The translations under genes were made by a program, and so were the position numbers. From positions 73,780,001 through 73,844,000 of the forward strand of contig OZ287748.1 of the NCBI GenBank assembly GCA_965649765.1: DNA of 64,000 nt. Reading direction: 5' to 3'. Positions within the stretch are counted from its first letter, which is position 1. Every line of letters starts with the position of its first letter. This document shows positions 14,983-38,143 of this stretch, piece by piece. Source of the DNA: Bispira polyomma (Eukaryota). The notes beneath the pieces are model-generated. The model was not told where the DNA came from and did no database searches. It saw only the letters and a list, made by a program, of their open reading frames with translations.

Positions 14983-15320
14983 CAGTGTATAGCTCTCCTC
15001 CATAGAAGTCTGCCCAGTACTAAATGAGTTAATGAAGTCACAACTTGTCTGACAGCCTCCAGAACAGATTTCTGTCTCTTGTCCACATTTTAAGGCCTGA
15101 TTCTGTAGCACTAGTCTGTGACAGATTTTCCAGAAGTCTAGACACTCCTCACTCCTCACACAGTGCTGGTCCCTTCTGGTGGTGATCTCTCTGATGTAAT
15201 GGGAGCCACACTGGGCTCGACATTGGCTCAAGGTTACAGCCTGGTCTTGGGTTACAGCTGAGGTCATAGGTGGTAAAAGTACTAGTAGCAGAAAACTACT
15301 AGTGGCAGAAAACCGTCCAT
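14983..15320 (-). pseudogene. Paralog D: 5' fragment of the Cys-box membrane protein gene
   Basis: ATG at 15320 is out of frame with the rest (53 nt to the ATG at 15267; short duplication in the signal peptide). Homology stops after EESYTL at ~14983. Confidence 0.9.
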
Positions 15321-16973
15321 GTTATATTATCCAATACTTGATAGATATTATGAATTTTCTGGTTGGTTTCGTTACTTACTTATAGTAAAGCTTGTCACTG
15401 CCTATGCTATTCAATTCACAGGTGTTGTTCAATAGTTTAACATGTATTAATTGAGAATGTGCTTACATGCTGGAGGCAAGTTTGATAATGAACCAACTAT
15501 CTACTTGTACCCTTTATATAGCAGAGTCATCTTGCTCTTTTGTTGAATTCTCCCAATTTAAATTGAGTTTCCATTTCCCTACTCTCAACTGGTTGCTGCC
15601 TGAGTACTGATTTCTTGACATAAATAACTACTCCCCAATTTTTTGAGGGCCTCAGTATATATATAGATACTCTGTAGCAATTGTAGCTGAGTAGGAATGT
15701 GTGATTGCAATTGTGTTTGGCATCAGCTGGATCTTAATGAGGAAATAAACAGCTGTATTTAGTGGACTTATTATAATCATAATTTAAAGTTTAAAACTTG
15801 AAAATTAAAAATATTTTGCTGTAGGATATAAAAAAGAATAAATGAATGAAGTATACATATATTTAGAAATAAATTTGCACAATAAATATGTAATATTTTT
15901 GAAAAATAAAGTAAATTAATTAATGTACCGTAAGTTTTGCAATGTAATCAAGGAGGAATTTAAGATTGTACAGTTATAAAAATGTATTACCATTTTTGTG
16001 AACTATGTGGCCCAATAATATAAAATGTATATTTCTGGTGGATTTTAAAATATTTATTGTTAACTTTACTCAGGTGTATGTAGAGCTTCATTCCATGTTC
16101 AACTGTCCTACATTGGTGCCTCAATTACTTGATTGCAATAATGTGTACATTTTACCAGTTATACATCTTACCTAAAATAATGTAAAATAAAAGTGACTTC
16201 TAAGCCCATTTGGGCTGGGCAATTTTGATATAGATGTATGTATTGCCTGTCACTGTAATAAATAAATACAAATTAATAAATTATATGACCTGTTGAAAAT
16301 TACTCGGTAACTCTAACAAAATGGTAACTATTAAAGGTGTCTAATTATTGTTTTTTTGTAATTTATTGCTATAATTTAACTTATTAGATAGTTATATTTT
16401 GTAGATAAATATACTAGTCCACTAGATCAATCTGTATTAAGTGGATATCATGCTTATTTCATCTTTATATGTGCAACACAACAACTCAAAATTAAACTAG
16501 AACTCCCATTTTTGCCTACATTATTAAAGTTCCCTGAGTTATTTAAATTTAACTTCCCAGTAGGAAAAAATCCCTACTTATTTGCATTATGTAATACAGT
16601 TTATAAAAGTGAACTCCTTACAGACCTACATTATCATATTAAGAACTCAGTAAGGCTATATGTCTAATTGTAATTACTGCAAGTAATTCATGATAAAACT
16701 GACTCTCCCCACTTGCTAATTGCTGAGTAGGTATTTATGCCAAGAAGTCTGGTAATCAAATAAATAATTGCAATTACTGCTCTAACTGCTGCAATTAAAT
16801 TATAAAATAACTGTATATGTTCTCCACCCTGCTAATTGTTGAGTAGGTATCTATGTCAAGGAATCATGTACTCAGGCTAGACCCAGATGAGTAGGCAGGT
16901 AGATCTCTTGGCTGGATTGCAATCTAATATAATAAATAGCAATTGTGAATGACTTCTTCTTTTGACCTATGTG

Positions 16974-17007
16974 TATATAAAGCTGTGATCTTTGTAACTG
17001 CATCATT
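16974..17007 (+). promoter_or_regulatory. Putative TATA box plus initiator of paralog A
   Basis: TATATAAA at 16974 and TCATT at 17003, ~30 bp apart. The same arrangement is conserved upstream of paralog C. Confidence 0.55.
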
Positions 17008-17169
17008 ATCAAACTTACACTCAACTGTGACTGAACCATTACTGTTGAAATACTATATTATAAATACTTATCTGTATTGTCTACTAAAAGCACAAAGTGT
17101 ATTTATTTTATTGGAGACTTTATCATTTTTATCAAGATTGTTTGAACATAACCTTTGTTTGCAGTAAGC

Positions 17170-18396
17170 ATGGAAGGTTTTCTGCTACTAGTGGTCCTAC
17201 TTTTAGCACCTATGACCTCAACTGTAACCCAAGCCCAGGCTGTGTCCTTGAGTCAGTGTCGAGCCCAGTATGGCTCCCATTACATCAGAGAGATCACCGC
17301 TAGAAGGGACCAGCACTGTGTGAGAAGTGAGGAGTGTTTAGACTGCTGGCAAACCTGTCACCGACTAGTGCTACAGAATCAGGCCTGGAAATGTGCACAA
17401 GAGGCCGGAATCTGTTCTGGAGGCTGTCAGACCAGTTGTGACTTCATTAACTCATTGGGTGAACGGCAGACTTCTACAGAGGAGAGCTATACACTGACCA
17501 CAGAAGTGACCATGAACAACACATTCTTTGTCATTCATGTACACCTGACTACTAATGAAGATTTTGACCATGGAAGAGTTGTATATTCCTTGCTGTACAA
17601 GCACAAGACCAGTCCTGAGTGGAGATATTACTCTTCGAGTTTGGACAGTCAACTGTATGTAGTAGGAACTCACCATATGTATGATGATGTAGAGTTCAAG
17701 GTCATGGCCATGACACCAGAGGGCATTGTGGGAAGTACAGCACTAGTGCACAGTGACCTGAAGGAAGAAGTGGCCGAAAGATCAGCTGAAACAACAACTA
17801 CAACAACTACAGAGAATGTGGAAAGTCTGAGTGGTGAGGCCAGTACTGAAGAACTGACCACAGAGGAGGTCACTGAGTACACAAGTAGTGAGTACATTGA
17901 TAGTACAAGTGCACTTTATAGTACAGGTGTACTTAGTACTACAGAGACACAGGAGCAGAGTAGTAGTTCATCAGGTGAGAAGAGAGACAGTGTAGATAGA
18001 GTAGAGGAAAGCAGTAGACATACACAGACTGTAGTCATAGTTCTGACTCTACTCCTGTCTACTCTCACTGCTACTGTCCTAGTTTTGCTCTGGTTACATA
18101 TCCGACTCCTCAGAATCATAAAGAGACAGTCCAGATTTAACCAGCTCAGAAGAAACAGACCAATCTATAAAGGTGGACATCAAGGACAGACAAAGCCTCA
18201 AACCCAGAAATCTGAATGTCAAGTGATGTTACACTCTGAGCCTGATCAAATGAAGAGTTTGCCTTGTGTTTTTAGGGATACAGCAGTTGTAGTTAATATG
18301 GACTTCAGTAGAGAGGAGATGTCAGTGTGTATTGATCCACTGGGTCCTCCTAAACACTCACACTTTGATCTGAGTCTGGATATTTTTGACTGTTAA
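17170..18396 (+). CDS. Paralog A: type I membrane protein, anosmin-like Cys box, FN3-like region, S/T/E stalk, TM, cytoplasmic tail (408 aa)
   Basis: Uninterrupted ORF from ATG 17170 (the track start at 17155 is TTG, inside a pyrimidine tract/CAG). Signal peptide MEGFLLLVVLLL, C-x5-C-x2-C-x3-C and CQTSCDF, TM VVIVLTLLLSTLTATVLVLLWL, basic stop-transfer residues. Confidence 0.85.
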   Translation: MEGFLLLVVLLLAPMTSTVTQAQAVSLSQCRAQYGSHYIREITARRDQHCVRSEECLDCWQTCHRLVLQNQAWKCAQEAGICSGGCQTSCDFINSLGERQTSTEESYTLTTEVTMNNTFFVIHVHLTTNEDFDHGRVVYSLLYKHKTSPEWRYYSSSLDSQLYVVGTHHMYDDVEFKVMAMTPEGIVGSTALVHSDLKEEVAERSAETTTTTTTENVESLSGEASTEELTTEEVTEYTSSEYIDSTSALYSTGVLSTTETQEQSSSSSGEKRDSVDRVEESSRHTQTVVIVLTLLLSTLTATVLVLLWLHIRLLRIIKRQSRFNQLRRNRPIYKGGHQGQTKPQTQKSECQVMLHSEPDQMKSLPCVFRDTAVVVNMDFSREEMSVCIDPLGPPKHSHFDLSLDIFDC

Positions 18397-20046
18397 GATT
18401 AATGTTGTTATTGTTTTGTATGTAATTGTTAAGTTTTCTCTTGTCTGTGTATATATAACATTGTTATAAGTTGTATGATATACATGCATGTCTAAATTAT
18501 TGAGTTGTTTATAAGATGGTTATAAAAATATGAACTTAAAACATATTTTTTTGTCATTTCAGGACTTCAGTCTACTGTAGAAGCCAATCCAAACATTGAT
18601 TAACTGCTCCTACTTTATTTAGCTGTCCTTAGGAGGTTAAAGTTTTTGCTATACTTCAGTTTATTTGAACTAATTTGCATGAAATGTGGTGAAGGGATTG
18701 GACAGGAGTACCTTAAACTTTGGTGGGATAGCATCCTTGGGCAAGATGTGAACACAACTGACTAATATCTCCATTGGCAGATTAAATATCCTTGGGGACG
18801 TTGATAATGGTCATCCTCAAGCAAGCCTTGGTGCTTATAGTGGCTGCCCATGTGGAAGCGCATTTAAAACTGCCCTGTGTTCTATAAGTGCGCTATATCA
18901 AATGTCCTATTTCATTTCATTTACTGTAAAATACCACCAGCTTAGAGCAAGGACTGGTCAAACTATCCCACATGAAGGAAGGAAAAGTAGTGGGAGTTGA
19001 GCCCACTGTCCTCAAGAGGTGAAAAAGGCTAGTGATATTAAAACAAAAAGATACTTAATATGTCCACTAGGTCACTGCAACGGGCCGGGCCCCTTATATC
19101 TACTTATTAGCAGCTACAATAACAAAAGCTTTTTGAGGCAATTGTGTCGATATATATACAGGTTGATGGATACAGCTTCGCTTAAATAGACTGTCTTAAC
19201 AAATCGCACATTACTCAGATTTAGGAGTGTATTAAAGTAAGCAATCCTAAAATTCAAAACTGTATCTGAAAAATTCGCCACCTAGAAACTGTTGTGTTTT
19301 TGGTAGAAATATTGGGCAATATTTTGCTGAAATTGATATTCTTGTGACTATTTTTCCTTACTTACCTAAATTCCAGTTACTTTTTTGCCCAGGTTTTTAT
19401 TAAATTTGGGTAAAATTGTAAGGGGTAGTCAATTTCAAATACAGTTGCGAATTTTACGATTCCTTTCTCTTAACGTTTCTTGTTGATATATTCCAGACCC
19501 TGGTGACGGTTGTCTCTCTGTGTGTATATTGTGTATCTCTCTCCAAAGTCTATGTGTGCATTCTATAAACAAACCTCATTAATAAATGCTGTTACTGTAT
19601 GTTATAGGCTCAATAAACCTGTCCAGTAAAAAAAAACCCCAACCAATCATTTGTTTTGTTTATCCCACAAATGACACTTCAATCACCATCTAACTACAGC
19701 TTTTTAAAAAAAAACATGGAACATATGACTCCCCCTCTTTCAAAAACTAAATTTAATTGATCAAATTAAACTTGATAATGCAAAACTCAAATAAAACTAA
19801 GGCAACCTTTTGGATAAAAGCATGGGAATGTGCAAAACATCGTCTGTTGAAACTTTAAATAATAAATTTGATAAAACAATTGTCTTTGGCAAAGATCTCC
19901 TTTCAAGGAGTGAAAAATAGCTTCATGATGATAAACAGTATGGTCATCATAACAGTACAGCGACATTCTTTCTGAGAAACTGGTGTAGAACAGTATGTTG
20001 GCTAGAGGTCAAAACATAGAAAATCCTTTGTATGGTTATTTACAGA

Positions 20047-20298
20047 ATTTGAATTTGGATATTTAACGTCCACTCTAGTACCTCTTAGTAGGTTATATTG
20101 GGATGGGTAGTTGGAAACGCTGGAGGAAACACTGCAAACAGTCGGTCAAGGTTCTGCAGAGAAACCAGCGGCCCACAGTAAGGAACTACCACCTTTCCAA
20201 CATAGGCATCAACGGGATTCAAACTCACGCCGCCCAGAGGTGAGAGACCAGTGATTGTGAAGCACAATGCTTGCTAACCACTAGGTCACCGCGGCTCC
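20047..20298 (-). mobile_element. tRNA-derived SINE, full length, with 13 bp TSD
   Basis: Reverse complement of the 1712-1960 family. TSD GGTTATTTACAGA at 20034-20046 and 20299-20311. Confidence 0.92.
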
Positions 20299-22141
20299 GG
20301 TTATTTACAGATGATAAGCACATTTTACCATGTAGCTTTCTGTCATGGCAGGAACAAGACAGAAGCAATTTCAAGGTCCAGAATAAATAAATGTCAAGGT
20401 TCATTGTAGAGTAAATCATAATGCAGCATATTTAAGTCATTATACGGTCAGTTACAACATGTGGCAACATAGGGACATGCCTTCACAACTCTTGCGATTC
20501 TTTCTACAACCAAGTATAATCAAAATGTCCTGCAACAACAAACTGGTTCCTCATGTACCGAATGCAAAATGCAGTTTGATTTAAGTGTATTTTGTACTCT
20601 AACATATCAGTCTCAAAACAATTTTTTTATACATGTACTTATAACGTAGGCGAGTGTTTAGGTTCATTTTCTTTGTTTAATTGAATGTTCGTGTATTTAT
20701 TGTAAATTGTCATAATTTGTAAATCAAAATACAGTTTTCCAGTGTCATGTTCTGGCCTCCTCTCTATTTTTCACCTTGAAGTTATGACCTTGACCTTTTT
20801 CTGGACTGTTGACCTGTTTAACTGCTGGTACTAGTCTCCTAGCAAAGCTTCCACAGACAGTCTCCAATAATTTCAAAAATGCATTTCTTTTATTAACCGC
20901 TCCTTCTATTGCCATTATTAAATGATACAGAAAAAAATACTGCATCGGTATATCAGGCTTTATTGAAAAAAAAACTAGCTTTACACGTCACAGATTTTAC
21001 AAGTATATATTGGTATAAACTGTCAGAAATTTAAACTCTTTCTAGATTATTTATATACAAGTAACTCATAATATCATAGAAAGAAGTCACTTAACTGATT
21101 CAGTCTTTTGAAAAAGTCGGTTATTAAAAAATATTATAATAAATTACAACAGGCTATTATAAAAACTAATCTTGAGACATAATCAGTTTTTAACATACCC
21201 AACTTTTAACGTAGTCAATTTGATAGAACAAAATCAATGTATTAAATGTAGCTGTGATATTTTACGTTTCAACTCGCATATTGGCACAAAATTATTATCC
21301 CCCAATCCTAATACAATTTTCTAAATCAAAACTCTTTTTTCTATTTAGTCTTAGAACCAGTGTAACCTATCAGCAGACGGATCTATATTTTAATATACAT
21401 TTAGTAATCTAATAAATTTAGTAATACATTTAGTAATCTCATAAAAAAATAACATAAAATTCATTGAAACTATTTATCACAACTATTGCAATAAAAAATA
21501 AACAACATAGCACTTGGCACCTATTAGTTATCACTATAAGCTAATAATACTGTTGAAACAACAAACCAATGTTTATATGACTTTATGAAACAAAAACACT
21601 AAAATATTAATTCATGAATACTGATCATTTGTAGGAGTTATAATAGATACACATTAATAAGTTAGGACTGAACACTGTAAGTATATAAATGCACTGAACA
21701 CATACGTTGGTAGATCCTAACTGCTCACAATATTAACTTAAGTTCAATAATTTACATCTGTTTAAAAATTATTTAAAAATTTTAAAGCTATGTAAAAAGT
21801 TAAAAGTTCTATCACAAAATATTTCAGTTAAAATATCAACATAATTAAACAGAAACAAATTATTTTAGGATGGAAAAAAATAACAATATTATATGAAATT
21901 TGTTTTAAAAATAACAAAATTAAACTCTATATTCTGCAAGGTTAACAAATAATAACAGCAAATTATTAAGTTATACAACATATTAACACACAGGAAATAC
22001 ATTAAATCAGTATTAAAAATAACAAAATTACACTGTCTCTTGTAAGGATAAAAATAACAAAAAAATAACAAGATATTGAAGAATCAAGGATAAAAAAAAA
22101 AAAAAAAAAAAAAATGCAACAGTTTTTGAAGTAGGAAATAT

Positions 22142-25100
22142 TTAATCTTTGTGTTGATCTCCATGGAGACCAAATAATTCCTTCTCCATCTCCTTTATCT
22201 GTTTTAGCAGCACAGAACCTGCATCCAGACGCTCCAAGAACTCAGACTGGCTCTTCTGTGTATACGCCTTTAGTTCAGCCACCTCCTTTCTAAACTCCTC
22301 TGCCTCTGATTTCACGGCCTGAATTCCTTGCACTAGACTGGTCAGTCCAATGTGCAGACCATTGGCCAGGTGTGAGGCTCTCTGGAGTTGTAAGCACTGA
22401 TCACAGCCGGCCTTAAAGTGACCGCCGTGTTTGCTGTGGGCATCTGATCTGTACTGGTGGACAAGAAGGACCTGTGGAGGGTGCACAGAAGTAACAAGTT
22501 AATTAAAATGTAAATTTGCATTGATAAAGCACTTTCTTTCAAAGCGCTGTACACAGTTTACACCCCCCCCCCCCCCTCCCAGCCTTGGTTCTTTCACTTG
22601 TCAACAAATTGTTCAGTCTCAGCTCCCTTAAGGAAGCATATACTAGTTATGCTGCCACACACGGCACAAAAATTAACACACCCATTAGCAGCCAGGTACC
22701 TATTTATATACCTGGGTGGAGATGGATAACTTAGTGTGAAGTACCTTGTCCAAGGGTACAATCACCAGACAAACAGTCAGGATCGAACCAGGATCCTCCG
22801 ATCTTCCAAATCTAAAAGTCTGACACTATATCCCACAGAAGTAGTAATTAGTAAGTGGTGAAATGCCTAAAAAAATGACCCCAAAAATGGAGTTCCCAGG
22901 ACCTGACCATTGATAAAAAGTCTCAAAAACTTTGGTTCAATTCCTATCTTTAACATCTTTATCTAAACTGTCATATGTTGGTATACTATGTATAATATAT
23001 AAAATTATATATTAGGGGTAAAATTATATATTAGGGGTGAGCCGGTTAAAACACAGTGCAAATATATAAATTTGGAAGAGGGTGAATATGTTCCTAAAAT
23101 TAAATATTCAGAAAACATAAGTTTGGAGATAACAGAGGTTCTACTGTATATATATATATATATACAGGGGTCAACAAAAGTCACTTACCAAGACAATCAC
23201 TGCAATGGCTAGTAGGAGTGCAACAAGATATCCAGCAGCTCCAGATTCTACAGTAATAAACATCCAGCTCCAGGCTTCAGCAAATTCTGCCAGCTGACTG
23301 AATCCAATCAATACCAGATTATACAGCTTGTTAAAGCATGCCATTGATGCCTCAAAGCCACACTTCAGAGCAGACAAGACTCCACCAATGACAAGACCAA
23401 GAACAGCAACCAGAGCAGGTAACATATCGGCATGGTGAATGGTTGTATACCCGGCTGTAGATAAGACATCCATGATGTGAGTAGCCTTCTGGAGGAGATC
23501 CTTGCTAAAGTGATCATCATTGAATGTGGCAGCCACAACTTTGTTTTCTTCTTCCTCAGAAATAGTCACCTCGCATACCCTCATCCTCTGTTTGTGGGTT
23601 TCATGAACTGGGCTGTTGTTGTTACCCATGACAGCATCAAAGCCAAAGCTAAGGCCATCTGTGACAAGCAGGAAGCCATCAGAGAAGATAGATTTTCCAG
23701 TGGCCATGAGGTCCTTCATATCTTCTGCCATAACTGCAGAAGAACTTCGTACAATGGTCACCAATCCTTTAGCAACATCTATGGCAGCTACAATAAGACA
23801 AAAAGAAATGTTTAGCTAAAGTTATATTTACTACTGCATATCTTAATTAACATTAAAGGGTAATTTACTATAACTTCTGCATGGGTAGCTCTGGCTTCAG
23901 TCTACCCTTGGCCTCGGCCATTAAGAAATTTACTTCGTACTGATTTTACACGGGCAGTCGAGGCCAAGGGTAGGCCAAAAGCTAGCACCACCCATGTACT
24001 AGTCACTCTTAGATATAAATGTACATATAAACTTATATTACTGGTTATTTAAACACAGAATATAGTCTTGTACACACTTTAAAAAAAAAATAAATAAATA
24101 ATTTACGGGACAACATTAACGTTTCCAGATAAAGGACACACCACTTCATAACAAAATTTAGTATTACTTAGTTATCTTCAGACCTGACATGCCACTTTTG
24201 TCAGAATTCATAACTCACTTTCCGAGTTCTGTTATTTACACAAGCAAATATGTATTGTAGATTAGAAGTTTATCAAATTGAAAAATCAAAGCTTTTAGGA
24301 TTGATCACACATTGTAGAAGTATTAAGGTGTTGACATATTTAACACATACCAGAAATGTATGTTCTGTCGCCCTGGTTGTATTCTTTGACTGAGTACATT
24401 GTACCAGCATGGCTAAGGCCGTCATACATGGGAAATCCACAGCCTGGCAATACCAGGTCACCCTGCATGACAACATCACAGCCCTTAAAACAATAAAGTG
24501 AAGAGTTCATATGTTATTTATTTTATTTTAAGCAGCATTCAACTATCATCATTTGATATAAATTGAAGTATACAGTATAGAACATATATATATATATATA
24601 TCTAATCTAATCTAGTCGTACTTTTATAGTGCTTAATCTTTGTACAACAAATTCTAAGGCGCAACAAACCCAAAACGTTAATCGAAAATCAAAAATAGTG
24701 GGCGGATGGAAGTCATAACCAGGGAGACTACCGTAAATGGTTGCGACGGCTAAGGTGGAAAAGCCTGTTCAAAAAGATAGGCCTTCAGCTTACTCCTGAA
24801 AGAGGAGAAAGTTTGAGCCAGGCGAACATGACCAGGTAGGCTGTTCCAAATGAGGGGGCCATCATGAGCTAGGCAGTGATTGAACTGAACTTTGGATTTG
24901 TGGATGCGAGGGTCGAAAGTGGGAATGTTAAGGTATAATCTATCAGGGTTACTGCGCCTTGTCCTGACTGAGCATGTATATTTGGACAGATGGGGGCTAA
25001 AATAAGTGGGTAATCCAGAAATTTATATATTATTGTTGCTGTTTTGAAAGCAACACGATATTTTATTGGGAGCCAGTGCAATGACTTGAGTACAGGAGTA

Positions 25101-25856
25101 ATGTGGGAAAATTTAAAAGTTTTGGTCACAATACGTGCCAACGAGTGTTGGATATTCTGAAGGCGTCTGAGATGACTACGATATAAGGAACGTATATATA
25201 TATATGGGAGAGCAAGATTTATTCTGATAACATGAGGCCTATAAAATAGTATCAACAATGGGAGAATTTAAATTTGGTCAACTGTAAAACAATTTTACAA
25301 AATTGAGGTCTAAATAATATACATTCTATGGTGCACCAGCTAGGGTTTTTTTGTTGTGGCATTTACGTTTTCATAGTAGACATAAATTAAGCAGCAATAT
25401 ATGGTCTTTAAATCACATGTACGTTGTAGAACTTAGTAAAATATAAACTTTTGTTGTGTTTATTAAATGTGCTGTATCACAGTAATCTTGCCTAATTATA
25501 CTTTGTTGTTTTCACATAAAACTCTCCTAAAAAAAGTCTACGTTTGTGAAAACCTCAACTAAAAAGTCTACGTATACCACGAAAACGTAAGTGCCACGAA
25601 AACGCCATAAACAACCACAACCAGGATCCATTATGTTGACGTTTTCGTCACACTAAAATATTTGTTTGAAAACACAAACCTTCAGTTTTTCATCTGTTTG
25701 CACATATCTGTACTGAGACTTCAGTAGCAATACAAACAGGAAAAGTATTACACCAACGTGTAATATCTTGTGTAATATCTTCCGATACTTCAGCTTCTCT
25801 ATCTGCTTCATTATCTTCTGACGCTTCTGCTTACGTATCTTCCAACGCTTCATCAT
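22142..25856 (-). CDS. Uncharacterised 4-exon membrane protein with C-terminal coiled coil, copy 1 (~412 aa)
   Basis: Exons 25856-25680, 24483-24351, 23787-23189, 22471-22142. GT-AG introns with compatible phases 0,1,0 and no internal stop. Alternative in-frame ATG at 25961. Confidence 0.72.
22660..22835 (-). mobile_element. Degenerate SINE fragment (conserved-core type)
   Basis: CCAGGTACCTATTTATATACCTGGGTGGAGA...CTTGTCCAAGG...GGATCGAACC (reverse B box). Confidence 0.6.
23880..23996. mobile_element. Small foldback element/MITE in intron 2 of the orphan gene
   Basis: CATGGGT...CTACCCTTGGCCTCG pairs with CGAGGCCAAGGGTAG...ACCCATG. Confidence 0.65.
24600..25190 (-). mobile_element. 5'-truncated L2-type LINE 3' end inserted in a (TA)n tract
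   Basis: RRLQNIQHSLARIVT...[26 protein letters not shown] tail, (TA)n on both sides. Confidence 0.9.
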
Positions 25857-25951
25857 TAAGATGATGGTAAATATTATCAAATATTCATGAAAATAATATT
25901 CTCCCAACTTTTTTTGCAACCGTTTCCAAGAAAAGCGAACTTGATAATAAG

Positions 25952-25974
25952 ATGACGTCATGCGTCACGTGACG
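25952..25974. promoter_or_regulatory. Adjacent palindromic CRE (ATGACGTCAT) and E-box (CGTCACGTGACG)
   Basis: Perfect palindromes ~100 bp upstream of the ATG at 25856 of the orphan gene. Confidence 0.5.
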
Positions 25975-26495
25975 GTGTAAAATATTCTCCGCGACGTACC
26001 GAAAGAATTGTGCGCAAACATTTTGCAAGTTGTAAATGTGTAACGTTAATAATTGTGATTGTGTAACGTCAATTGTGACTTTATGACAAAAATAAATGTG
26101 TAACGTCAACAATTGTGACTTTACAACAAAAATAAACGAGAGTACAATATGTGTTAGTGCTTGAGTCAAGTTTTGAATAACATTACGCTAAACTCGGCTT
26201 AGAACTATTTATTGTACATATGCATGGCAAAACGCATAACGTCCTCTTTTAGGCCTAGTACAAAGATTAACTGTTTGTCGTCAGTTTTTCTTGACATAAT
26301 GCCCCGCATACAATCCTGCTTATCAGTGTACCCAGCATCAGTCAAAAACAGGTTGAAATAATGCCTTAACAGTCGTGTATAATTGTGGGGCCAAAACTCG
26401 CCATGATTGCAACTGAAAAACGAAACATAAGGGTAATATCCAGCTGTTGTCTGTGAATCAGACACGGTTTGGTGGGGACAGAGAGTGGGGTATTA

Positions 26496-26515
26496 GGGGC
26501 GGAAGTCTGACGTCA
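26496..26515 (+). promoter_or_regulatory. Overlapping GC box, ETS site and CRE
   Basis: GGGGCGGAAGTCTGACGTCA. Confidence 0.5.
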
Positions 26516-28440
26516 TAAACACCTATTTTTTTGTTTTTTGTGACGTGACACACCACATATTTCTAAGGTTGAAGATTATTTTGTTGTTGAGAAAATTGCA
26601 TATTTGACTATTTGTAAATATGAAGTCTTAACTACAAAAATTACGTCCTTTTTGTTCGTTCCTGGAACCACCATTTGTCTTAAACTTCTGCAGTCAGGTT
26701 AAAACAGTGGAAACGACATCAATATAGGTAGGACATAGATGGTTAATGTATACATGTACGAGGGCATTATGTTACCTGTCGCAAGCTCTGTGTGGATGTG
26801 ACATGCGCCAATACAGTACAAAGATAAAAAAAATATCCTCTACTATATTAACCAGGCATAAAGGTAATATGTGCTACATATTGACATTCACACAGAGGGT
26901 CTTTTTGCTTTACAATAACAGCACAGATCTGCCCTGGCTATTGGGGGGAAAGTCCATACACTAAATATGGATGTTACCATTTGATAACATGTTACAGCTC
27001 TAGTTAAATCTAATTTAGAAATTTTTTGTGTATTATGCCCCAGTCCCACCGGATTTACGTTAGTCTATGTTAACCACCAAAGGCTGTCGCAAAAATTGGA
27101 TGCAAAAATCCACACACAAGGGGGAAACCCCAGGCAGAAGTCGATTTATATTTTTTATTACGTCAAAGGCATTAACTTGCGCAGAGATCCATGTATTTGT
27201 ACGTCAACACCTGTAAAGAGTTGCACACATTTGTACGCAAATACACATAAAACGACGCACATTGACACGTTCAAGGCCATAATATTATATTAAACCACGT
27301 AATTTATTATGTTATATAGGTAATACTATTGATATAGGTAATACTACATCAATGTCTATGTATTCTTACGCTGTATGATTTGTATTACGTTAACACTCAT
27401 GTGGCTACGTCAAACCACGCTTTAGAAATAGATGTTCGCAAGTCTATGTTTTTTGGCCACATTGCTTGCCGCATCAATCTTATGTGGTTTGCGTGTCCAA
27501 ATTTCAAACGGTATCAAATTATAGATTTCTTGAATGTCATCTCTCACGTCAGATTATGTATGTTTATGTATATTACATTAGCTCCCGCAAACACCACGCA
27601 AACCCTACGCAAAATGATTTCGTTTAATGACTGCTTATGTGAAGTGCGGTGGAACTGAAGCATTACAGTAGAATTAAAGACTTTCGGTGCCAAGTTAAAA
27701 GATGGCCATTTACAATGTTGGCTGTTGCTGTTTAGAATATTGACTGTATGCTTGATGTTTTACTAGGATAAATTAATGGGGACCAAAGGTCTATTGTTAA
27801 TAGGTAAATATTATGTTAGTAAATGTAGCAAAGGAAAACAGAAAACTAGGTTTGCTATTTTGTTGTTGTTTTTTTTTGTTTATTCTAAGAGATCGTTTAG
27901 ACATTGGTAAGCAAATAGCAATAAAAACTACTCTAATTTAAACTTTAAAAACTTAAAAGTTTTGAGAGTTACTCGTGCTATATCTAATTAGTAATGATAT
28001 ATCTTTATGTGACCTTGGTAGTAAACAATTTTTGTTTTTGTCAAGGTTTGTAAGGATATACTGAATGTGTAAAAATAAATCGCATTTTGTACACCAAAAG
28101 TTAAGACTAATCACTTTTATTCTGGGGTAGTGCTTTATACAAGGTTACGTCCAAGAGTTCTATACGGCCTTGTCTAGTTGATATTTTCGTCATCGGTAAA
28201 ATAAACATTCTTTTAATAAAAGCAAAGACTTGGAAACTACATTAACTGTTAGATAAGAGGACAATCTATAAAAATGATATCACAACATAGAAGTTGATTC
28301 AATTAAAAGGCATTTAAAATGGCATTGACGGAAATATCTACTTGACAAAAATATCACAGAAGAGGGTGCAGAATCTCCCAATGTTCTCCTAATATCAAAA
28401 CGGTATCGTTTCCAATGATAAATTTTATTCCTATAAACAC

Positions 28441-28790
28441 CAATAATAATAATAATTGAAACGTTTATAAAGCACCAAATTGACGAGAACATTCTGTAAG
28501 GCGCTGATATCCAAAAAGGGTAAATTTCAGGGCCAAGCAAAATGTGGTTACCAGAAAGCATCCACCAAAAGAAGGGTGACTTAGGATGGGGATAGGCCAG
28601 TTTGAAAATTGTATTGTATTGTATTGTAGATTTTAAATGTGCATACTTGTAAAACAGTTAAAATGCATATTTAATATGAAGAGTTCCCTTAATATGTCCT
28701 TATCTATAGTGTTATTGAAAAGGTAAGTTTCAAGGTGGCTTCTTAAACCAGTGATTTTATCCTATTAAATAAAAGGCCACATGCATGGCC
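28441..28790 (-). mobile_element. Old LINE 3' end fragment (L2/CR1-like)
   Basis: Minus strand ends CAGCGCC...GTGCTTTATAAA followed by (ATT)n, with degenerate LRSHLET-like coding upstream. Confidence 0.45.
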
Positions 28791-29482
28791 ATAACCTCAT
28801 ACCACGAACAATAGGCATAATGTACACAAATAATTTTGTATTATAAATAATAATAATAGTTCTTCCAATATAAGTAATATATAGGTCAACTAGTATAAAT
28901 GATCATGTTTATATAATCAGGGATTGCATGTTCATTTATATGCTTTGTTTTAAAAAAAGTGACTTTTAGTTATAACTTAAAAATTCTTTGCTTTATGAAA
29001 TACTGGTGATTTTTCTAACAACGGTTTTCATCAATCCTCGCGTACATTATTGATAAAACCATATACCAATTTATAATTTCCCCACGAACCATAACGTCCC
29101 CAATGAGGTGATCTCGATATTACGTAGTAAACTGCTAAAAACTGTGAAATTGTGGGTATGTTTTAAAAGGGCTGTCATTAATATCTCTGCTGGGGTATAT
29201 TTATACATTAGGTGTTACATTATGTAGCCAGTATATTGTATGACATAAAATGAATATAATTTGCAATTAGAGTCTTTTCTCAAAGCGTTTTATATTACCG
29301 TACGTAGAGCTGTAACGACACACGTAGGTAAAAGTCACGGTATTGTAAAACGTTAAAAATACATATTAAACATGGAGGATCTTCTTAGTGTTGGGGGTAC
29401 AACAAGATATACCAGCTACCTAATGAAAGAAGTAAAAAATATATCTAGCGGAGATATAACGACAGGTACTTTAAAAAGACAC

Positions 29483-29810
29483 CAGCAGTTGTAGTTGATA
29501 TAGACTTTAGTACAGAGGAGATTTCAGTGTGTATTGATCCACTGGGTCCTCCTAAACACTATGACTTTGATCTGAATCTGGATATTTTTGACTGCGAAGC
29601 TTAATTTTGTTATTGTTTTGTATGTAATTAAAGTTTTTTTGGTTCTGGGTGAATCTTGTGTCTGTAGCATTATTATAAGTTGTGTATTATACATGCATGT
29701 CTAAGTTATTGAGTTGTTGTTAAGATAGTAATAAAAATATGAACTAAAGAAATACGTTATTGGATCACTTCAGCCAACTCTAGAAGCAGTTAGAAATATT
29801 TATAAACAAC
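29483..29810 (+). pseudogene. Paralog E1: 3' relic of the membrane protein gene (tail plus 3' UTR)
   Basis: AVVVDIDFSTEEISVCIDPLGPPKHYDFDLNLDIFDC then 3' UTR homology. No 5' part. Confidence 0.88.
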
Positions 29811-29818
29811 TGCTTCTT

Positions 29819-30050
29819 TTATTACCCAGCTGACAAGATTATGTTTTTAATGTTTTTTGGTCTGAGTCCGTTGGTTTGTTTGTCACGAAGATTTTTTTTT
29901 ACACAAAAAATGATTTACATGAAATTTTGTGGAGGGTTGTGTCATGGGTGAAAGAATAATCCAATAAATTGGGCAGGGCAGACCCATTTTTTTACATTTT
30001 TACTGTGCCTCAGCCTTGGCAGAGGTATGCATTCCATTGAGTGCCTTTTA
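29819..30050 (+). mobile_element. Putative non-autonomous Helitron/Helentron (HINE-like) element
   Basis: TTATTACC start, GTTTGTTTGTC, ATTTACATGAAATTT, and 3' CCTTGGCAGAGGTATGCATTCCATTGAGTGCC hairpin end. Related copies at 31772-31945 (-), 18622-18725 and 14918-14980 (-). Confidence 0.55.
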
Positions 30051-30432
30051 GATGCCGAATTGTAATACAAGTATAGATTAAAAAGAAGATTTTGAGATTT
30101 AAAATTCTATTAATTTGACAAGTTATTCAGAGACACCATCTTGTCTTATGTACTGTAAACAACAGAAATAACTCGGCTCTGCAGTAAACTTATTCAAAGG
30201 TTTGCTGCTGATGGGATTCGATCCTGGGAAAACCCCGTAAGCCAGAGTGTTTAATGCACTGATATACATGGATAGTACAATACGCAGGATTATCTGAGAC
30301 CATAATGCACTCCGACAAGTTTGTTGACATTGTATGGAAATATAAACAAAACCAAAAACCATAATCCAAATCCAAACCATAGGAATGCAGTGATAACATT
30401 GCACCCCTGGCTCATAGATAGCTAGTAGACAT

Positions 30433-30633
30433 GCGCCATATTCACAAAAGGTCTTCGTATTAACTTAATCATGAGATTTTGGTCTTAGTCCCAGTGACAT
30501 TAAGAAAAGATTGTTTGTTTCTGTTAACTTTGCACTTTACACTAAGACTAACAGTAGACAGTCTTTAATATTTGAGACAAAAATGTTAAACTTAAGACTA
30601 AGTCAAGACTTAGACCTTTTGTGAATACGGCCC
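30433..30633. mobile_element. Harbinger-like MITE with a visible empty site
   Basis: TIRs GCCATATTCACAAAAGG / CCTTTTGTGAATACGGC, flanked by CAT/CAG. The homologous segment near 14685 (reverse strand) lacks it and has a single CAG. Confidence 0.8.
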
Positions 30634-32170
30634 CAGATGAATAGTGCCTAGGATGACCATTTAAAAAATTGTTGGTCCTCTTTCACAGACTCCTACCCAA
30701 GTGGCAGAGTGATGTAGGGTTCACACCATGAGAGTATAGAGAGATGGTAAGAGATATTTTGAAAAATTCCCCTGTAGTGCGGGGAACCCTATCTATAACT
30801 TCCCTTAACTTCAGCTTCCTTCCCAAACCTTCTACAGTCGGCTATAAATTTCTTTCTTAGGATCTTATTTTACGACAGCAAAATAAATGAATGAATTGTG
30901 TTATTATATTCAATAGGTTGAATACCATAACAAGCATGTGTCCACAACGTTTGGTACATGTACAGTATGTGGACTGTAGATGCTTTTTAAAAAGTTTAGC
31001 ATCAAAAAAACAGTGTAGAAGAAGTAATTCCCATTTTTATATAATTTTTGAGGTGGTTGCTAGGATGATTATTGATTGACAGGTCAAGTTCCCTCCCCCA
31101 ACTATACTGTTTTATTGTGAAAAATACAGCCTGGGAAAAACCCACTCAAGTTCCCTCATATAAAATGACCTGAAAGCACTAATTTTATACACACAACTAC
31201 ATACACACAAGATTCTGTATGTTTGGCTTTTTATATCTAGGGGAAATGAGGAGGGGGCTTTATAGTTATTAAAGCAATCTCTGTGTGCTTGTTTAGTATC
31301 CTTAAGACAGAAATACTGTAGATTAGAAATACTGTTATTTTATTTCTGGAAGTTTCACTGTAAATATATTTTGTGTATCATTCTAAATATTTGCAAACTT
31401 GCAACAAACATTACAGTGCGACAGCCACTTCAATTATTTAAACCCCCATCATTGTCTTTAAGATGCGTACATCATATATTTTATAATTTCTCTTTTTAGC
31501 ACTTGTGACGCTGTTTTTTTTTTTTCCTTTCCATCAGGTTAGAACTCACAAACTATCAGGAGGTAAGTGTTTTTTGTCAAATAACGTGTGCAGCTTTTCG
31601 TCCATAAAACTACTTTTCACCCACATGGTCATCTGGCGATGGGGCCACAAGCGCACTTTATTCTATTCTTGTTGATAAAATTCAAAATTACTACACAACT
31701 TTCTCTTTATCTGTATTGTATTCGAATTTATACTCAGCTCAGTATATTTCTGCCTTATTTTGTACAGTAAAAAGACACTCAGTAGAGTGCTTACCTCTGC
31801 CAAGGCCTCACAGTCAAAAAAAGTGACTTCTGCCTAGATATGCTCCAATGTTTAATGTACTCCTGTCCCATTCTTTCACCACATTTCATGTAAATTAGTT
31901 CAAACAAACAGAAGTATGGCAAAAACGTTAACCTCATAAGGACAGCTAAATAAAGTAGAAGCAGTTTATCAATGTTTGTAACGGCTTCTAGAGTAGACTG
32001 AAGACCTCAAATGACAAAAAATATTTCTTGAATTCATATTTTTATAACCATCTTATAAACAACTCAATAATTTAGACATGCATGTATATCATACAACTTA
32101 TAACAATGTTATATATACACAGACAAGAGAAAACTTAACAATTACATACAAAACAATAACAACATTAATC

Positions 32171-33400
32171 TTAACAGTCAAAAATATCCAGACTCAGATC
32201 AAAGTGTGAGTGTTTAGGAGGACCCAGTGGATCAATACACACTGACATCTCCTCTCTACTGAAGTCCATATTAACTACAACTGCTGTATCCCTAAAAACA
32301 CAAGGCAAACTCTTCATTTGATCAGGCTCAGAGTGTAACATCACTTGACATTCAGATTTCTGGGTTTGAGGCTTTGTCTGTCCTTGATGTCCACCTTTAT
32401 AGATTGGTCTGTTTCTTCTGAGCTGGTTAAATCTGGACTGTCTCTTTATGATTCTAAGGAGTCGGATATGTAACCAGAGCAAAACTAGGACAGTAGCAGT
32501 GAGAGTAGACAGGAGTAGAGTCAGAACTATGACTACAGTCTGTGTATGTCTACTGCTTTCCTCTACTCTATCTACACTGTCTCTCTTCTCACCTGATGAA
32601 CTACTACTCTGCTCCTGTGTCTCTGTAGTACTAAGTACACCTGTACTATAAAGTACACTTGTACTCTCGATGTACTCAGTACTCCTATACTCAGTGACCT
32701 CCTCTGTGGTCAGTTCTTCAGTACTGGCCTCACTACTCAGACTTTCCACATTCTCTGTAGTTGTTGTAATTGTTGTTTCTGCTGCTTTTTCTGCCACTCT
32801 GTCCTTCAGGTCACTGTGCACTAGTGCTGTACTTCCCACAATGCCTTCTGGTGTCAAGGCCATAACCTTGAACTCTACATCCTCATACATGGAGTGAGTT
32901 CCTACTACATACAGTTTACTGTCAAAACTAGAAGAGTAATATCTCCACTCAGGACTGGTCTTGTGTTTGTACAGCAAGGAATATACAACTCTTCCATTGT
33001 CAAAGTCTTCATTAGTAGTCAGGTGTACATGAATGACAAAGAATGTGTTGTTGTTTATGGTCACTTCTGTGGTCAGTGTATAGTTCTCCTCTGTAGAAGT
33101 CTGCCCTTCACCCAATGAGTTAATGAAGTCACAACTGGTCTGACAGCCTCCAGAACAGATTCCGGCCTCTTGTTCACATTTCCAGGCCTGATTCTGTAGC
33201 ACTAGTCGGTGACAGGTTTGCCAGCAGTCTAGACACTCCTCACTCCTCACACAGTGCTGGTCCCTTCTAGTGGTGATCTCTCTGATGTAACAGGAGCCAC
33301 ACTGGGCTCGACACTGACTCAAGGACACAGCCTGGTCTTGGGTTACAGCTGAGGTCATAGGTGGTAAAAGTAGGACCACCAGTAGCAGAAAACCTTCCAT
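32171..33400 (-). CDS. Paralog B1: full-length type I membrane protein (409 aa)
   Basis: Intact ORF from ATG 33400, same architecture as A. Confidence 0.85.
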   Translation of the reverse strand: MEGFLLLVVLLLPPMTSAVTQDQAVSLSQCRAQCGSCYIREITTRRDQHCVRSEECLDCWQTCHRLVLQNQAWKCEQEAGICSGGCQTSCDFINSLGEGQTSTEENYTLTTEVTINNNTFFVIHVHLTTNEDFDNGRVVYSLLYKHKTSPEWRYYSSSFDSKLYVVGTHSMYEDVEFKVMALTPEGIVGSTALVHSDLKDRVAEKAAETTITTTTENVESLSSEASTEELTTEEVTEYRSTEYIESTSVLYSTGVLSTTETQEQSSSSSGEKRDSVDRVEESSRHTQTVVIVLTLLLSTLTATVLVLLWLHIRLLRIIKRQSRFNQLRRNRPIYKGGHQGQTKPQTQKSECQVMLHSEPDQMKSLPCVFRDTAVVVNMDFSREEMSVCIDPLGPPKHSHFDLSLDIFDC

Positions 33401-35054
33401 GCTTACTGCAAACAAAGGTTATGTTCAGACAATCTTAATAAAAATAATAAAGTCTCCAATAAAATCAATACACTTTGTGCTTTTAGTAGACAATACAGAT
33501 AAGTATTTATAATATAGTATTTCAACAGTAATGGTTCAGTCACAGTTGAGTGTAAGTTTGATAATGATGCAGTTACCAAGATCACAGCTTTATATACACA
33601 TAGGTCAAAAGAAGAAGTCATTCACAATTGCTATTTATTATATTAGATTGCAATCCAGCCAAGAGATCTACCTGCCTACTCATCTGGGTCTAGCCTGAGT
33701 ACATGATTCCTTGACATAGATACCTACTCAACAATTAGCAGGGTGGAGAACATATACAGTTATTTTATAATTTAATTGCAGCAGTTAGAGCAGTAATTGC
33801 AATTATTTATTTGATTACCAGACTTCTTGGCATAAATACCTACTCAGCAATTAGTAAGGGGGGAGAGTCAGTTTTATCATGAATTACTTGCAGTAATTAC
33901 AATTAGACATATAGCCTTACTGAGTTCTTAATATGATAATGTAGGTCTGTAAGGAGTTCACTTTTATAAACTGTATTACATAATTCAAATAAGTAGGGAT
34001 TTTTTCCTACTGGGAAGTTAAATTGAAATAACTCGGGGAACTTTAATAATGTAGGCAAAAATGGGAGTTCTAGTTTAATTTTGAGTTGTTGTGTTGCACA
34101 TATAAAGATGAAATAAGCATGATATCCACTTAATACAGATTGATCTAGTGGACTAGTATATTTATCTACAAAATATAACTATCTAATAAGTTAAGTTATA
34201 GCAATAAATTACAAAAAAACAATAATTAGACACCTTTAATAGTTACCATTTTGTTAGAGTTACTGAGTAATTTTCAACAGGTCATATAATTTATTAATTT
34301 GTATTTATTTATTATAGTGACAGGCAATACATACATCTATATCAAAATTGCCCAGCCCAAATGGGCTTAGAAGTCACTTTTATTTTACATTATTTTAGGT
34401 AAGATGTATAACTGGTAAAATGTACACCTTATTGCAATCAAGTAATTGAGGCACCAATGTAGGACAGTTGAACATGGAATGAAGCTCTAAACACACCTGA
34501 GTAAAGTTAACAATAAATATTTTAAAATCCACCAGAAATATACATCTTATATTATTGGGCCACATAATTCACAAAAATGGTAATACATTTTTATAACTGT
34601 ACAATCTTAAATTCCTCCTTGATTACATTGCAAAACTTACGGTACATTAATTAATTTACTTTATTTTTCAAAAATATTACATATTTATTGTGCAAATTTA
34701 TTTCTGAATATATGTATACTTCATTCATTTATTCTTTTTTATATCCTACAGCAAAATATTTTTAATTTTCAAGTTTTAAACTTTAAATTATGATTATAAC
34801 AAGAAGTCCACTAAATACAGCTGTTTATTTCCTCATTAAGATCCAGCTGATGCCAAACACAATATTGCAATCACACATTCCTACTCAGCTACAATTGCTA
34901 CAGAGTATCTATATATATACTCAGGCCCTCAAATAATTGGGGAGTAGTTATTTATGTCAAGAAATCAGTACTCAGGCAGCAGCCAGTTAAGAGTAGGGAA
35001 ATGGAAACTCAATTTAAATTGGGAGAATTCAACAAAAGAGCAAGATGACTCTGC

Positions 35055-35088
35055 TATATAAAGGGTACAAGTAGATAGTTGGTTCATT
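35055..35088 (+). promoter_or_regulatory. Putative TATA box plus initiator of paralog C1
   Basis: TATATAAA at 35055, TCATT at 35084, possible donor GTAAGC at 35109. Confidence 0.55.
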
Positions 35089-35250
35089 ATCAAACTTGCC
35101 TCCAGCATGTAAGCACATTCTCAATTAATATATGTTAAACTATTGAACAACACCTGTGAATTTAATAGCATAGGCAGTGACAAGCTTTACTATAAGTAAC
35201 GAAACCAACTAGAAAATTCAAAATTTCTATCAAGTTTTTGATAATATAAC

Positions 35251-36493
35251 ATGGAAGGTTTTCTGCTACTATTAGTCCTGCTTTTATCACCAATGACCTC
35301 AGCTGTAACCCAAGACAAAGCTGTAACCTTGAGTCAATGTCGAGCCCAGTGTAGCTCCCATTACATTAGAGAGATCACCACCAGAAGAGACCAGCCCTGT
35401 GTGAGAAGTGAGGAGTGTCTAGACTGCTGGCAAACCTGTCACCGACTAGTGCTACAGAATCAGGCCTCGAAATGTGGACAAGAGGCTGGAGTCTGTTCTG
35501 GAGGCTGTCAGACCAGTTGTGATTTTATCAGCGAAGTTATAAAATCACAGTTGAGTGAAGGGCAGAATTTTACAGAGGAGAGCTATACACTGACCACGGA
35601 AGTGACCACGAACAACAACACATTCTTTGTCATTCATGTACACCTGACTACTAATGAAGACTTTGATCATGGAAGAGTTGTATATTCCTTGCTGCACAAA
35701 CAAAAGACCAGTCCTGAGTGGAGATATTACTCATCTAGCATGGACAGTCAACTGTATGTAGTAGGAACTCACTCCATGTATGAGGATGTAGAGTTCAAGG
35801 TCATGGCCTTTACACCAGAGGGCATTGTGGGAAGTACAGCACTAGTGCACAGTGACCTGAAGGACAGAGTGGCAGAAAAAGCAGCAGAAACAACAATTAC
35901 AACAACTACAGAGAATGTGGAAAGTCTGAGTAGTGAGGCCAGTACTGAAGAACTGACCACAGAGGAGGTCACTGAGTACACAAGTAGTGAGTACATTAAG
36001 AGTACAAGTGTACTTTATAGTACAGGTGTACTTAGTACTACAGAGATACAGGAGCAGAGTAGTAGTTCATCCAGTGAGAAGAGACAGTGTAGATAGAGTA
36101 GAGGAAAGCAGTAGACATACACAGACTGTAGTCATAGTTCTGACTCTACTCCTGTCTACTCTCACTGCTACTGTCCTAGTCTTGCTTTGGTTACATATTC
36201 GTCTCCTCAGAATCATAAAGAGACAGTCCAGATTTAACCAGCTCAGAAGAAACAGACCAATCTATAAAGGTGGACATCAAGGACAGACAAAGTCTCAAAC
36301 CCAGAAATCTGCATGTCAAGTGATGTTACATGATGAACCTGATCAAATGAAGAGTTTGCCTTGTGTTTTTAGGGATACAGCAGTTGTAGTTAATATGGAC
36401 TTCAGTAGAGAGGAGATGTCAGTGTGTATTGATCCACTGGGTCCTCCTAAACACTCACACTTTGATCTGAGTCTGGATATTTTTGACTGTTAA
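35251..36493 (+). pseudogene. Paralog C1: frameshifted before the TM; ORF 35251-36096 encodes a 281 aa ectodomain-only protein
   Basis: GAGAAGAGACAG versus GAGAAGAGAGACAG in A (2 bp GA loss near 36080). TM and tail continue in another frame to 36493. Confidence 0.8.
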
Positions 36494-38143
36494 GATTAAT
36501 GTTGTTATTGTTTTGTATGTAATTGTTAAGTTTTCTCTTGTCTGTGTATATATAACATTGTTATAAGTTGTATGATATACATGCATGTCTAAATTATTGA
36601 GTTGTTTATAAGATGGTTATAAAAATATGAACTTAAAACATATTTTTTTGTCATTTCAGGACTTCAGTCTACTGTAGAAGCCAATCCAAACATTGATTAA
36701 CTGCTCCTACTTTATTTAGCTGTCCTTAGGAGGTTAAAGTTTTTGCTATACTTCAGTTTATTTGAACTAATTTGCATGAAATGTGGTGAAGGGATTGGAC
36801 AGGAGTACCTTAAACTTTGGTGGGATAGCATCCTTGGGCAAGATGTGAACACAACTGACTAATATCTCCATTGGCAGATTAAATATCCTTGGGGACGTTG
36901 ATAATGGTCATCCTCAAGCAAGCCTTGGTGCTTATAGTGGCTGCCCATGTGGAAGCGCATTTAAAACTGCCCTGTGTTCTATAAGTGCGCTATATCAAAT
37001 GTCCTATTTCATTTCATTTACTGTAAAATACCACCAGCTTAGAGCAAGGACTGGTCAAACTATCCCACATGAAGGAAGGAAAAGTAGTGGGAGTTGAGCC
37101 CACTGTCCTCAAGAGGTGAAAAAGGCTAGTGATATTAAAACAAAAAGATACTTAATATGTCCACTAGGTCACTGCAACGGGCCGGGCCCCTTATATCTAC
37201 TTATTAGCAGCTACAATAACAAAAGCTTTTTGAGGCAATTGTGTCGATATATATACAGGTTGATGGATACAGCTTCGCTTAAATAGACTGTCTTAACAAA
37301 TCGCACATTACTCAGATTTAGGAGTGTATTAAAGTAAGCAATCCTAAAATTCAAAACTGTATCTGAAAAATTCGCCACCTAGAAACTGTTGTGTTTTTGG
37401 TAGAAATATTGGGCAATATTTTGCTGAAATTGATATTCTTGTGACTATTTTTCCTTACTTACCTAAATTCCAGTTACTTTTTTGCCCAGGTTTTTATTAA
37501 ATTTGGGTAAAATTGTAAGGGGTAGTCAATTTCAAATACAGTTGCGAATTTTACGATTCCTTTCTCTTAACGTTTCTTGTTGATATATTCCAGACCCTGG
37601 TGACGGTTGTCTCTCTGTGTGTATATTGTGTATCTCTCTCCAAAGTCTATGTGTGCATTCTATAAACAAACCTCATTAATAAATGCTGTTACTGTATGTT
37701 ATAGGCTCAATAAACCTGTCCAGTAAAAAAAAACCCCAACCAATCATTTGTTTTGTTTATCCCACAAATGACACTTCAATCACCATCTAACTACAGCTTT
37801 TTAAAAAAAAACATGGAACATATGACTCCCCCTCTTTCAAAAACTAAATTTAATTGATCAAATTAAACTTGATAATGCAAAACTCAAATAAAACTAAGGC
37901 AACCTTTTGGATAAAAGCATGGGAATGTGCAAAACATCGTCTGTTGAAACTTTAAATAATAAATTTGATAAAACAATTGTCTTTGGCAAAGATCTCCTTT
38001 CAAGGAGTGAAAAATAGCTTCATGATGATAAACAGTATGGTCATCATAACAGTACAGCGACATTCTTTCTGAGAAACTGGTGTAGAACAGTATGTTGGCT
38101 AGAGGTCAAAACATAGAAAATCCTTTGTATGGTTATTTACAGA

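Follow-up and report, generated by a model that had tools for sequence, protein, structure and literature searches.

A cluster of intronless receptor-like genes

We analysed a 64,000-nucleotide stretch of the Bispira polyomma genome (GCA_965649765.1, contig OZ287748.1, positions 73,780,001 to 73,844,000 of the forward strand), referred to here as the window. Within this 64-kb window lie five full-length copies of one intronless gene, for a predicted receptor-like membrane protein, together with three remnants of the same gene. Two intact copies, A and B, differ in their predicted ectodomains and are almost identical from the end of the stalk to the start of the 3′ untranslated region (UTR), a pattern that recent partial gene conversion probably produced. 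Coordinates below are those of the window, and the members of the family found in it are as follows.

17170-18396 (+): copy A, intact open reading frame (ORF) of 408 amino acids (aa), with Cys34 replaced by Tyr (base 17270)
32171-33400 (−): copy B, intact ORF of 409 aa, with all ten family cysteines and an additional Cys37
35251-36493 (+): copy C, with a 2-bp deletion near 36080; the ORF stops at 36096, giving 281 aa without the membrane helix
50268-51497 (−): copy B2, same sequence as B
53348-54590 (+): copy C2, frameshift as in C, with Cys90 replaced by Arg
14983-15320 (−): copy D, a 5′ remnant with an 11-bp insertion near its start, stopping where the fibronectin type III (FN3)-like domain begins
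29483-29823 (+): old 3′ remnant, the final ~110 coding bases 92% alike, followed by 3′ UTR
47580-47920: second copy of the 3′ remnant, a repeat of 29483-29823

The predicted protein carries a signal peptide, a ten-cysteine helical box, an FN3-like domain, a Ser/Thr/Glu stalk, one membrane helix and a 98-residue tail. Searches of A, B, C and two other ORFs against Pfam gave nothing above the cut-off, and the cysteine box and FN3 features were therefore read from the alignment. The structure model reached a mean confidence (pLDDT) of 90 and a predicted TM-score (pTM) of 0.87, while the cysteine box alone was modelled as four helices at pLDDT 85. In copy A the parts fall as follows.

17236-17454 (+): helical cysteine box, aa ~23-95, limits placed by eye on the basis of the B model
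17455-17754 (+): FN3-like domain, aa ~96-195
17755-18027 (+): Ser/Thr/Glu-rich stalk, 40% Ser plus Thr, with an 18-bp tandem repeat at 17900-17934
~17912-17998 (+): stalk change points, A coding bases 743-829
18028-18396 (+): predicted membrane helix (aa ~287-310), then a tail of 98 aa that contains a single Tyr

The window copies lie on the contig that we number C1 (contig numbers are distinct from the names of gene copies). Head-to-head pairs were also found on contig C11 (E and F, 2 kb apart) and on contig C7 (G and H, about 10 kb apart, H with a deletion and a frameshift), with distant subfamilies on contigs C2 and C4. Genome copy counts are lower bounds; a search for additional tail-bearing copies gave 12 matches in the genome, all of them already known. 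Copies A, B, E, F, G and H have a pyrimidine-rich CAG 5-7 bases ahead of the ATG that C and D lack, which suggests a putative splice acceptor of a 5′ UTR intron. Copies C and C2 have in common the 2-base deletion that halts the frame ahead of the membrane helix, and the missing acceptor would further weaken copy C as a working gene.

Divergence between copies A and B changes in a step

Of the first 750 coding bases, 43 differ between copies A and B, against one of the last 477 (Fisher P 1e-8), and the best split of the alignment was reached by 0 of 300 permutations. The initial annotation, made by eye, had reported about 26 substitutions plus one indel in the first ~250 aa, none in the last ~155 aa, one synonymous change and a nearly identical upstream spacer. 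These counts were right: we find 26 residue differences and one 3-base (codon) indel in codons 1-248, no residue difference in codons 249-408, a single synonymous change at 18111, and 34 differences in 1869 bases of spacer (1.8%). Uniform divergence along the pair, named in that annotation as one outcome that would speak against it, is ruled out by this step.

The step sits within a larger inverted duplication, and the window also holds a tandem block.

14983-18723: left arm of a 3.7-kb inverted duplication (D, spacer, A); right arm 31845-35592 (B, spacer, C)
15321-17169: D-A spacer, 1.8% different from the B-C spacer at 33401-35250
17913-18534 (+): homogenised tract between A and B, with 1 difference in ~620 bases, covering the stalk end, membrane helix, tail and start of the 3′ UTR
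18241-35517 (+): first copy of a 17,277-bp tandem block; second copy at 36338-53614, offset +18,097

The arms are 95.4% alike overall and ~12% divergent at both ends. Along them, divergence runs from 12.9% in the D/C part through 1.8% in the spacer, 5.7% in the ectodomain and 0.2% in the tail to 11.8% in the 3′ flank. Identity extends ~138 bases beyond the stop codon, after which the 3′ flank differs at 22 of 187 bases.

Recent gene conversion as the probable source of identical tails

Silent sites differ between A and B at 1 of 108 positions in the tail versus 14 of 174 in the ectodomain, and the probability of at most one silent change in the tail at the ectodomain rate is 5e-7. The membrane and tail DNA of copy C2 shows 0 differences from A in 369 bases despite being out of frame. 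Because silent sites are identical as well, and because the frameshifted C2 has the same tail, recent gene conversion likely made the tails identical. Identical-run tests were significant for A-B, A-C2, B-C2 and E-F (P 0.0003 each; 15 pairs tested). A tract of identity that includes silent sites and lies between far more divergent flanks (11.8% and 12.9%) is also what marks paralogs under partial conversion of the TLR1/TLR6 type, discussed below. The proposed homogenisation of the 3′ half by conversion has good support. In the converted region, paralogs are closest to each other within contigs of this genome; two outside pairs, available as proteins only, are mixed.

The second part of that proposal, a constant signalling tail, is weak, since the tail has been homogenised even in C2, where it is out of frame and conversion cannot serve a constant protein tail, and since it is ~30% different in the contig C7 copy. 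Strong purifying selection on a signalling module, with no conversion, could in principle keep tails identical, and between the C1 and C11 copies the tail does show a ratio of nonsynonymous to synonymous divergence (dN/dS) of 0.24-0.30, with the final ~80 coding bases nearly invariant. Those same copies, though, diverge evenly at about 10%, the tail as fast as the ectodomain. Selection is no explanation for the A-B identity, since silent sites are identical, as are 138 bases of 3′ UTR, and the C2 tail is out of frame; we regard this account as extremely improbable.

An assembly artefact, either a merging of near-identical tails into one consensus by collapse or polishing or a false duplication of the 18-kb tandem block, would fit the 17,277 bases that are repeated with zero differences, with a junction within copy C. 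We consider it improbable too. Copy C retains ten tail differences of its own versus A and C2 (36181-36337), every copy retains its own flank, and the A-B contrast is independent of the tandem block. In run X2 the contig depths of the A-, B- and C2-type 3′ flanks were about 160, 148 and 69, which fits the assembled 2:2:1. The match is a weak one, since depth in these contigs does not measure copy number and the assembly may have been built from the same runs. Three contig-level runs of one study contain the region, with no RNA run among those listed; they are not independent support and, as contigs drop variants, cannot show alleles, and for the same reason the absence of A-specific letters among the matches listed in three contig sets is uninformative. 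The copy number of the tandem block rests on the assembly together with these weak X2 figures.

The 18,097-bp tandem duplication, with zero differences over 17,277 bases, reflects either a change in copy number that happened very recently or a loop in the assembly. Copy C has a 5′ end as in C2 and a 3′ flank identical to that of A, as would be expected if A and C2 had undergone unequal crossover. Six of its ten tail differences match the state in the C11 or C7 copies, and the tail of C may be a relic of the state before homogenisation.

Patchwork among copies A, B and C2

The initial annotation had further described B as a patchwork, resembling A in some parts and C in others. The 82 informative sites among A, B and C2 are indeed clustered in runs (runs test P 0.0006): A groups with B at 26 of 36 sites in bases 1-300, and B groups with C at 16 of 25 sites in bases 501-743. 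The polarity assigned to THSMYEDVEF was wrong, however. Three of the four changed bases there are private to A, while B, C and the C7 and C11 copies agree, so that A is the derived copy, and the B-with-C signal owes much to A being derived in this way. At KDRVAEKAAETTIT B and C do have states in common, and in the first stalk segment B and C2 differ at 6 of 158 positions versus 16 of 158 for A and B, which fits one exchange between B and C. In tree tests the ectodomain partitions reject the tail tree, which differs mainly by parting C from C2, and the stalk partition does not reject the cysteine-box tree (approximately unbiased test, 0.21); tree support for the patchwork is thus modest.

Ectodomains probably retain older differences

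The outer half had been taken to be shuffled or diversified while the tail was held constant. As an active process, diversification is not supported here. Silent divergence between the A and B ectodomains (14/174) does not differ from that of the 3′ flank (22/187, P 0.29), and against this baseline an acceleration of the ectodomain is ruled out. It is above that of the spacer (P 2e-5); amino-acid selection cannot produce a silent excess over the spacer with parity to the flank. Over codons 1-248 dN/dS was 0.31-0.62 in all 13 pairs computed, in no pair above 1; a single 53-codon stretch of the stalk gave 1.55 (P 0.73). The A-B ratio, at 0.62, is not different from 1 (P 0.14); those of A-C2 (0.48) and B-C2 (0.35) are both below 1 (P < 0.01).

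Among the 44 A-B differences, 21 are private to A, 12 are private to B, and for 11 both states occur in other family members. Changes private to A (16 nonsynonymous to 5 synonymous) follow the neutral site ratio (P 1.0), those private to B (6 to 6) fall under it (P 0.04), and the contrast between the two is not significant (P 0.15). On these small numbers A looks relaxed and B constrained. Cys34 is present in 37 of 37 aligned rows, an alignment that does not include A, and its loss likely damages A. The ectodomain differences are likely older ones retained under purifying or relaxed selection. The cysteine box has nine cysteines in A and eleven in B, versus ten in C, E, F and G, and the one unpaired cysteine that each would have might allow disulfide-linked dimers.

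Other loci and a reversed pattern on contig C7

Coding sequences of the C11 and C7 pairs differ by 0-8%, versus mostly 12-25% in their flanks. In the intact C11 pair the ectodomain again exceeds the tail (26/731 vs 7/487, P 0.03), with a change point at coding base 241. The C7 pair, with one broken member, shows no ectodomain-tail step (P 0.38), nor do seven copies on contig C4 (2.2, 3.4, 4.1 and 3.0% by region). Residue differences in the two outside pairs were 5/176 vs 4/82 and 10/176 vs 2/82, a mixed result on raw counts.

The C7 copies reverse the A-B pattern: G and H have ectodomains near those of the other copies and tails far from them. Between B and G, synonymous divergence (dS) is 0.14 in the cysteine box and FN3 domain versus 0.84 in the membrane helix and tail, and silent differences number 15 of 119 versus 42 of 83 (P 5e-9). 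Set against an outside homolog, P0001, the membrane region of G is further from A (19 of 50 aa different, versus 14 of 50 for P0001), while its cysteine box is much closer to B (3 of 73 versus 22 of 73). G is likely a chimera, with a recent ectodomain on an old tail. The two halves of the gene have separate histories. Change points fall at coding bases 743-777 for A-B, at 805-829 for A-C2 and at base 798 for G (support 774-839; six comparisons of C1 or C11 copies with C7 copies), all within the purine-rich, repetitive part of the stalk.

A distant subfamily of intronless genes (27% identity) is represented on contig C4 by at least seven copies in tandem (G000:C4:71631847-71662465, L026-L032), which include one truncated and one inverted member and carry a variable number of ten-residue stalk repeats. 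Single distant members at G000:C2:34823755 (L024) and G000:C4:50259005 (L033) each pair in the tree with an outside protein, and the family would accordingly hold at least four old subfamilies. The last ~37 tail residues (18282-18393; 29483-29595) are kept across all loci, in the remnant and in an outside 61-aa fragment, P0015 (70%), and are altered in P0001, P0002, P0042, P0063 and P0064.

Conversion, selection and the divergent island

The best explanation, to which we give a probability of roughly 0.6, is that A and B are inverted duplicates whose 3′ halves were overwritten by recent conversion among five nearby copies, with the ectodomains keeping older differences. The inverted duplication would have come first, at an age of about 12% divergence, and spacer and tail would then have been converted in separate later events that left the ectodomain near baseline. 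The purine-rich repetitive stalk would be the seam where conversion tracts begin or end, the same seam having been used in reverse as the C7 copy gained a recent ectodomain on its old tail. A itself would be drifting.

Several observations count against this explanation. The ectodomain is a divergent island between two converted tracts, and such an island arose in 36 of the 524 neutral runs with matching divergence (1800 in all), in a crude simulation whose tract lengths and rates were assumed. The island being rare, tracts placed at random do not give the best fit; its neutral frequency would rise, without selection, if the boundary were fixed or conversion were limited by mismatches. The intact C11 pair steps in the same direction and the broken C7 pair does not, as selection predicts. 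The 12% age comes from two short arm ends, one a pseudogene. A donor for the private tract of A was found among none of at least nine genome matches, only two or three events stand behind the stalk as a true seam, which chance could have brought together, and the evidence is the sequence of one haplotype.

These points lend some weight to a different account, in which the whole arm undergoes frequent conversion, but tracts that would homogenise the ectodomains are weeded out by selection, so that distinct recognition surfaces persist on one tail. Fawcett and Innan (PMC3924837) describe peaks of divergence between converting copies as a mark of selection, and this model needs no dN/dS above 1; 29 of the 43 A-B ectodomain changes are replacements. 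Yet the same step is seen versus C2, in which the tail is untranslated, the upstream acceptor is missing and one invariant cysteine is gone, and A lacks the invariant Cys34. Moreover, the C11 step lies elsewhere, the seven C4 copies show none, the outside pairs are mixed, and in comparisons across contigs it is the ectodomain that is better conserved. We hold this account to be possible, although unlikely.

More doubtful still is a modular reading, in which these are kinase-less receptors with a receptor tyrosine kinase (RTK) head whose ectodomain and membrane-tail modules are swapped at the stalk seam under selection, akin to vertebrate paired receptors. If true, one tail would serve several ectodomains on C1, a single ectodomain would be joined to two ancient tails (C1/C11 versus C7), and copies C and C2 would supply soluble decoys. 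Should the seam and the reversed C7 pattern be kept by selection, this would be a modular invertebrate recognition system in which a small set of proteins could be put to the test. On the most likely reading, partial conversion without such selection, the locus offers a small but clear example from a receptor-like family that has been little studied. It also warns that a constant tail with a variable outside need not reflect selection for variety.

Comparison with known systems

The event is of a known kind, described for TLR1/TLR6 and for paired receptors, in a family that appears to be new for it. Kruithof et al. 2007 (PMC2077338) describe a C-terminal part of TLR1 and TLR6 (membrane helix and intracellular domain) kept alike by conversion. 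Like A and B, these are neighbouring paralogous receptors with a converted C-terminal part and differing N-terminal ectodomains. Unlike A and B, they show the pattern in nine species, its boundaries nearly the same in each, and this recurrence speaks for selection; here we have one assembly, inverted copies, several of them broken, and partial recurrence.

Partial homogenisation of paired receptors is reported for KLRC, PIR and Ly49 (PMC3210942) and for Siglec-11/16 (PMC5701461). The C7 versus C1/C11 comparison is similar, with a homogenised ectodomain and a divergent membrane helix and tail (dS 0.14 vs 0.84), but the copies of the present family are on different contigs. Each of the two tails has one Tyr, and in a comparison by eye with the usual definitions of the immunoreceptor tyrosine-based activation (ITAM) and inhibition (ITIM) motifs, neither contained an ITAM, an ITIM or a charged membrane residue. 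In the literature we found no report of expansion or conversion in this family.

Relatives of the predicted protein

Searches gave 40 relatives at E up to 0.001, those with names coming from arthropods, bivalves, a brachiopod and an annelid. The name fend appears on 2 of 10 clusters looked up, and a member of the Penaeus cluster is annotated 'Transmembrane protein fend'; B and a Cloeon 'fend' (P0034) share 22% identity over 179 residues (pairwise E 1e-12). Fend (forked end) is described (PMC9966960) as an axon-guidance and neuromuscular recognition protein. It has a head of cysteine box and FN3 domain similar to that of A and B, B having all ten cysteines and A nine. In contrast to Fend, A and B have a mucin-like stalk directly behind the first FN3 domain and a tail without similarity, and the tree gives no support for orthology. 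In the ectodomain tree, where deep support is weak, the genes of the window fall together with other one-FN3 genes that lack introns. By their domain make-up they encode fend-like proteins.

A tyrosine kinase domain follows the same head in 3 of 9 relatives scanned, and the kinase of P0030 is closest to Ret and FGFR chains. Torso was considered as the closest kinase; no Torso chain is among the fold matches listed, which does not exclude it. The family profile matches anosmin-1 at 1e-11, and FN3 and anosmin clusters of the ESM Atlas at 0.85-0.88 offer a lead only. ROS1 heads are in the top five Foldseek matches over 185-196 columns, weakly (E about 8e-4, root-mean-square deviation (rmsd) about 15 Å). 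The cysteine box against ROS1 24-103 gave Z 4.3, rmsd 4.1 and 65 aligned residues, tied with unrelated bundles, and its own Foldseek search gave TMq 0.53 at E 3.8. Fold searches thus weakly indicate the ROS1 head and complement anaphylatoxin bundles, at scores in the noise range; the Sevenless paper (PMC11743138) gives the same distant likeness to complement anaphylatoxin for its CATCH domain. ROS1/Sevenless (CATCH plus FN3), anosmin-1 and invertebrate Ret/FGFR-like kinases may have a similar head. Unlike the RTKs, A and B gave no Pfam match to a kinase domain in the 98-aa tail, later spliced coding exons not having been searched, and the ROS1 match is weak. By analogy, the protein would be a cell-surface recognition or ligand-binding protein with an RTK head and no kinase.

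Other features of the window

A 382-aa ORF at 61142-62290 (−), rich in Ser, Tyr, Gly, His and Gln, is by appearance a transcription-factor exon; Pfam gave no match to it. The duplicated block carries a 186-aa ORF with a hydrophobic C-terminal part at 23171-23731 and 41268-41828 (−), which had no Pfam match above the cut-off and no usable atlas match. A very high-copy repeat at 18720-18940, with a contig depth about a thousandfold over that of the gene, starts exactly at the end of the A arm of the inverted duplication and may mark the duplication breakpoint.

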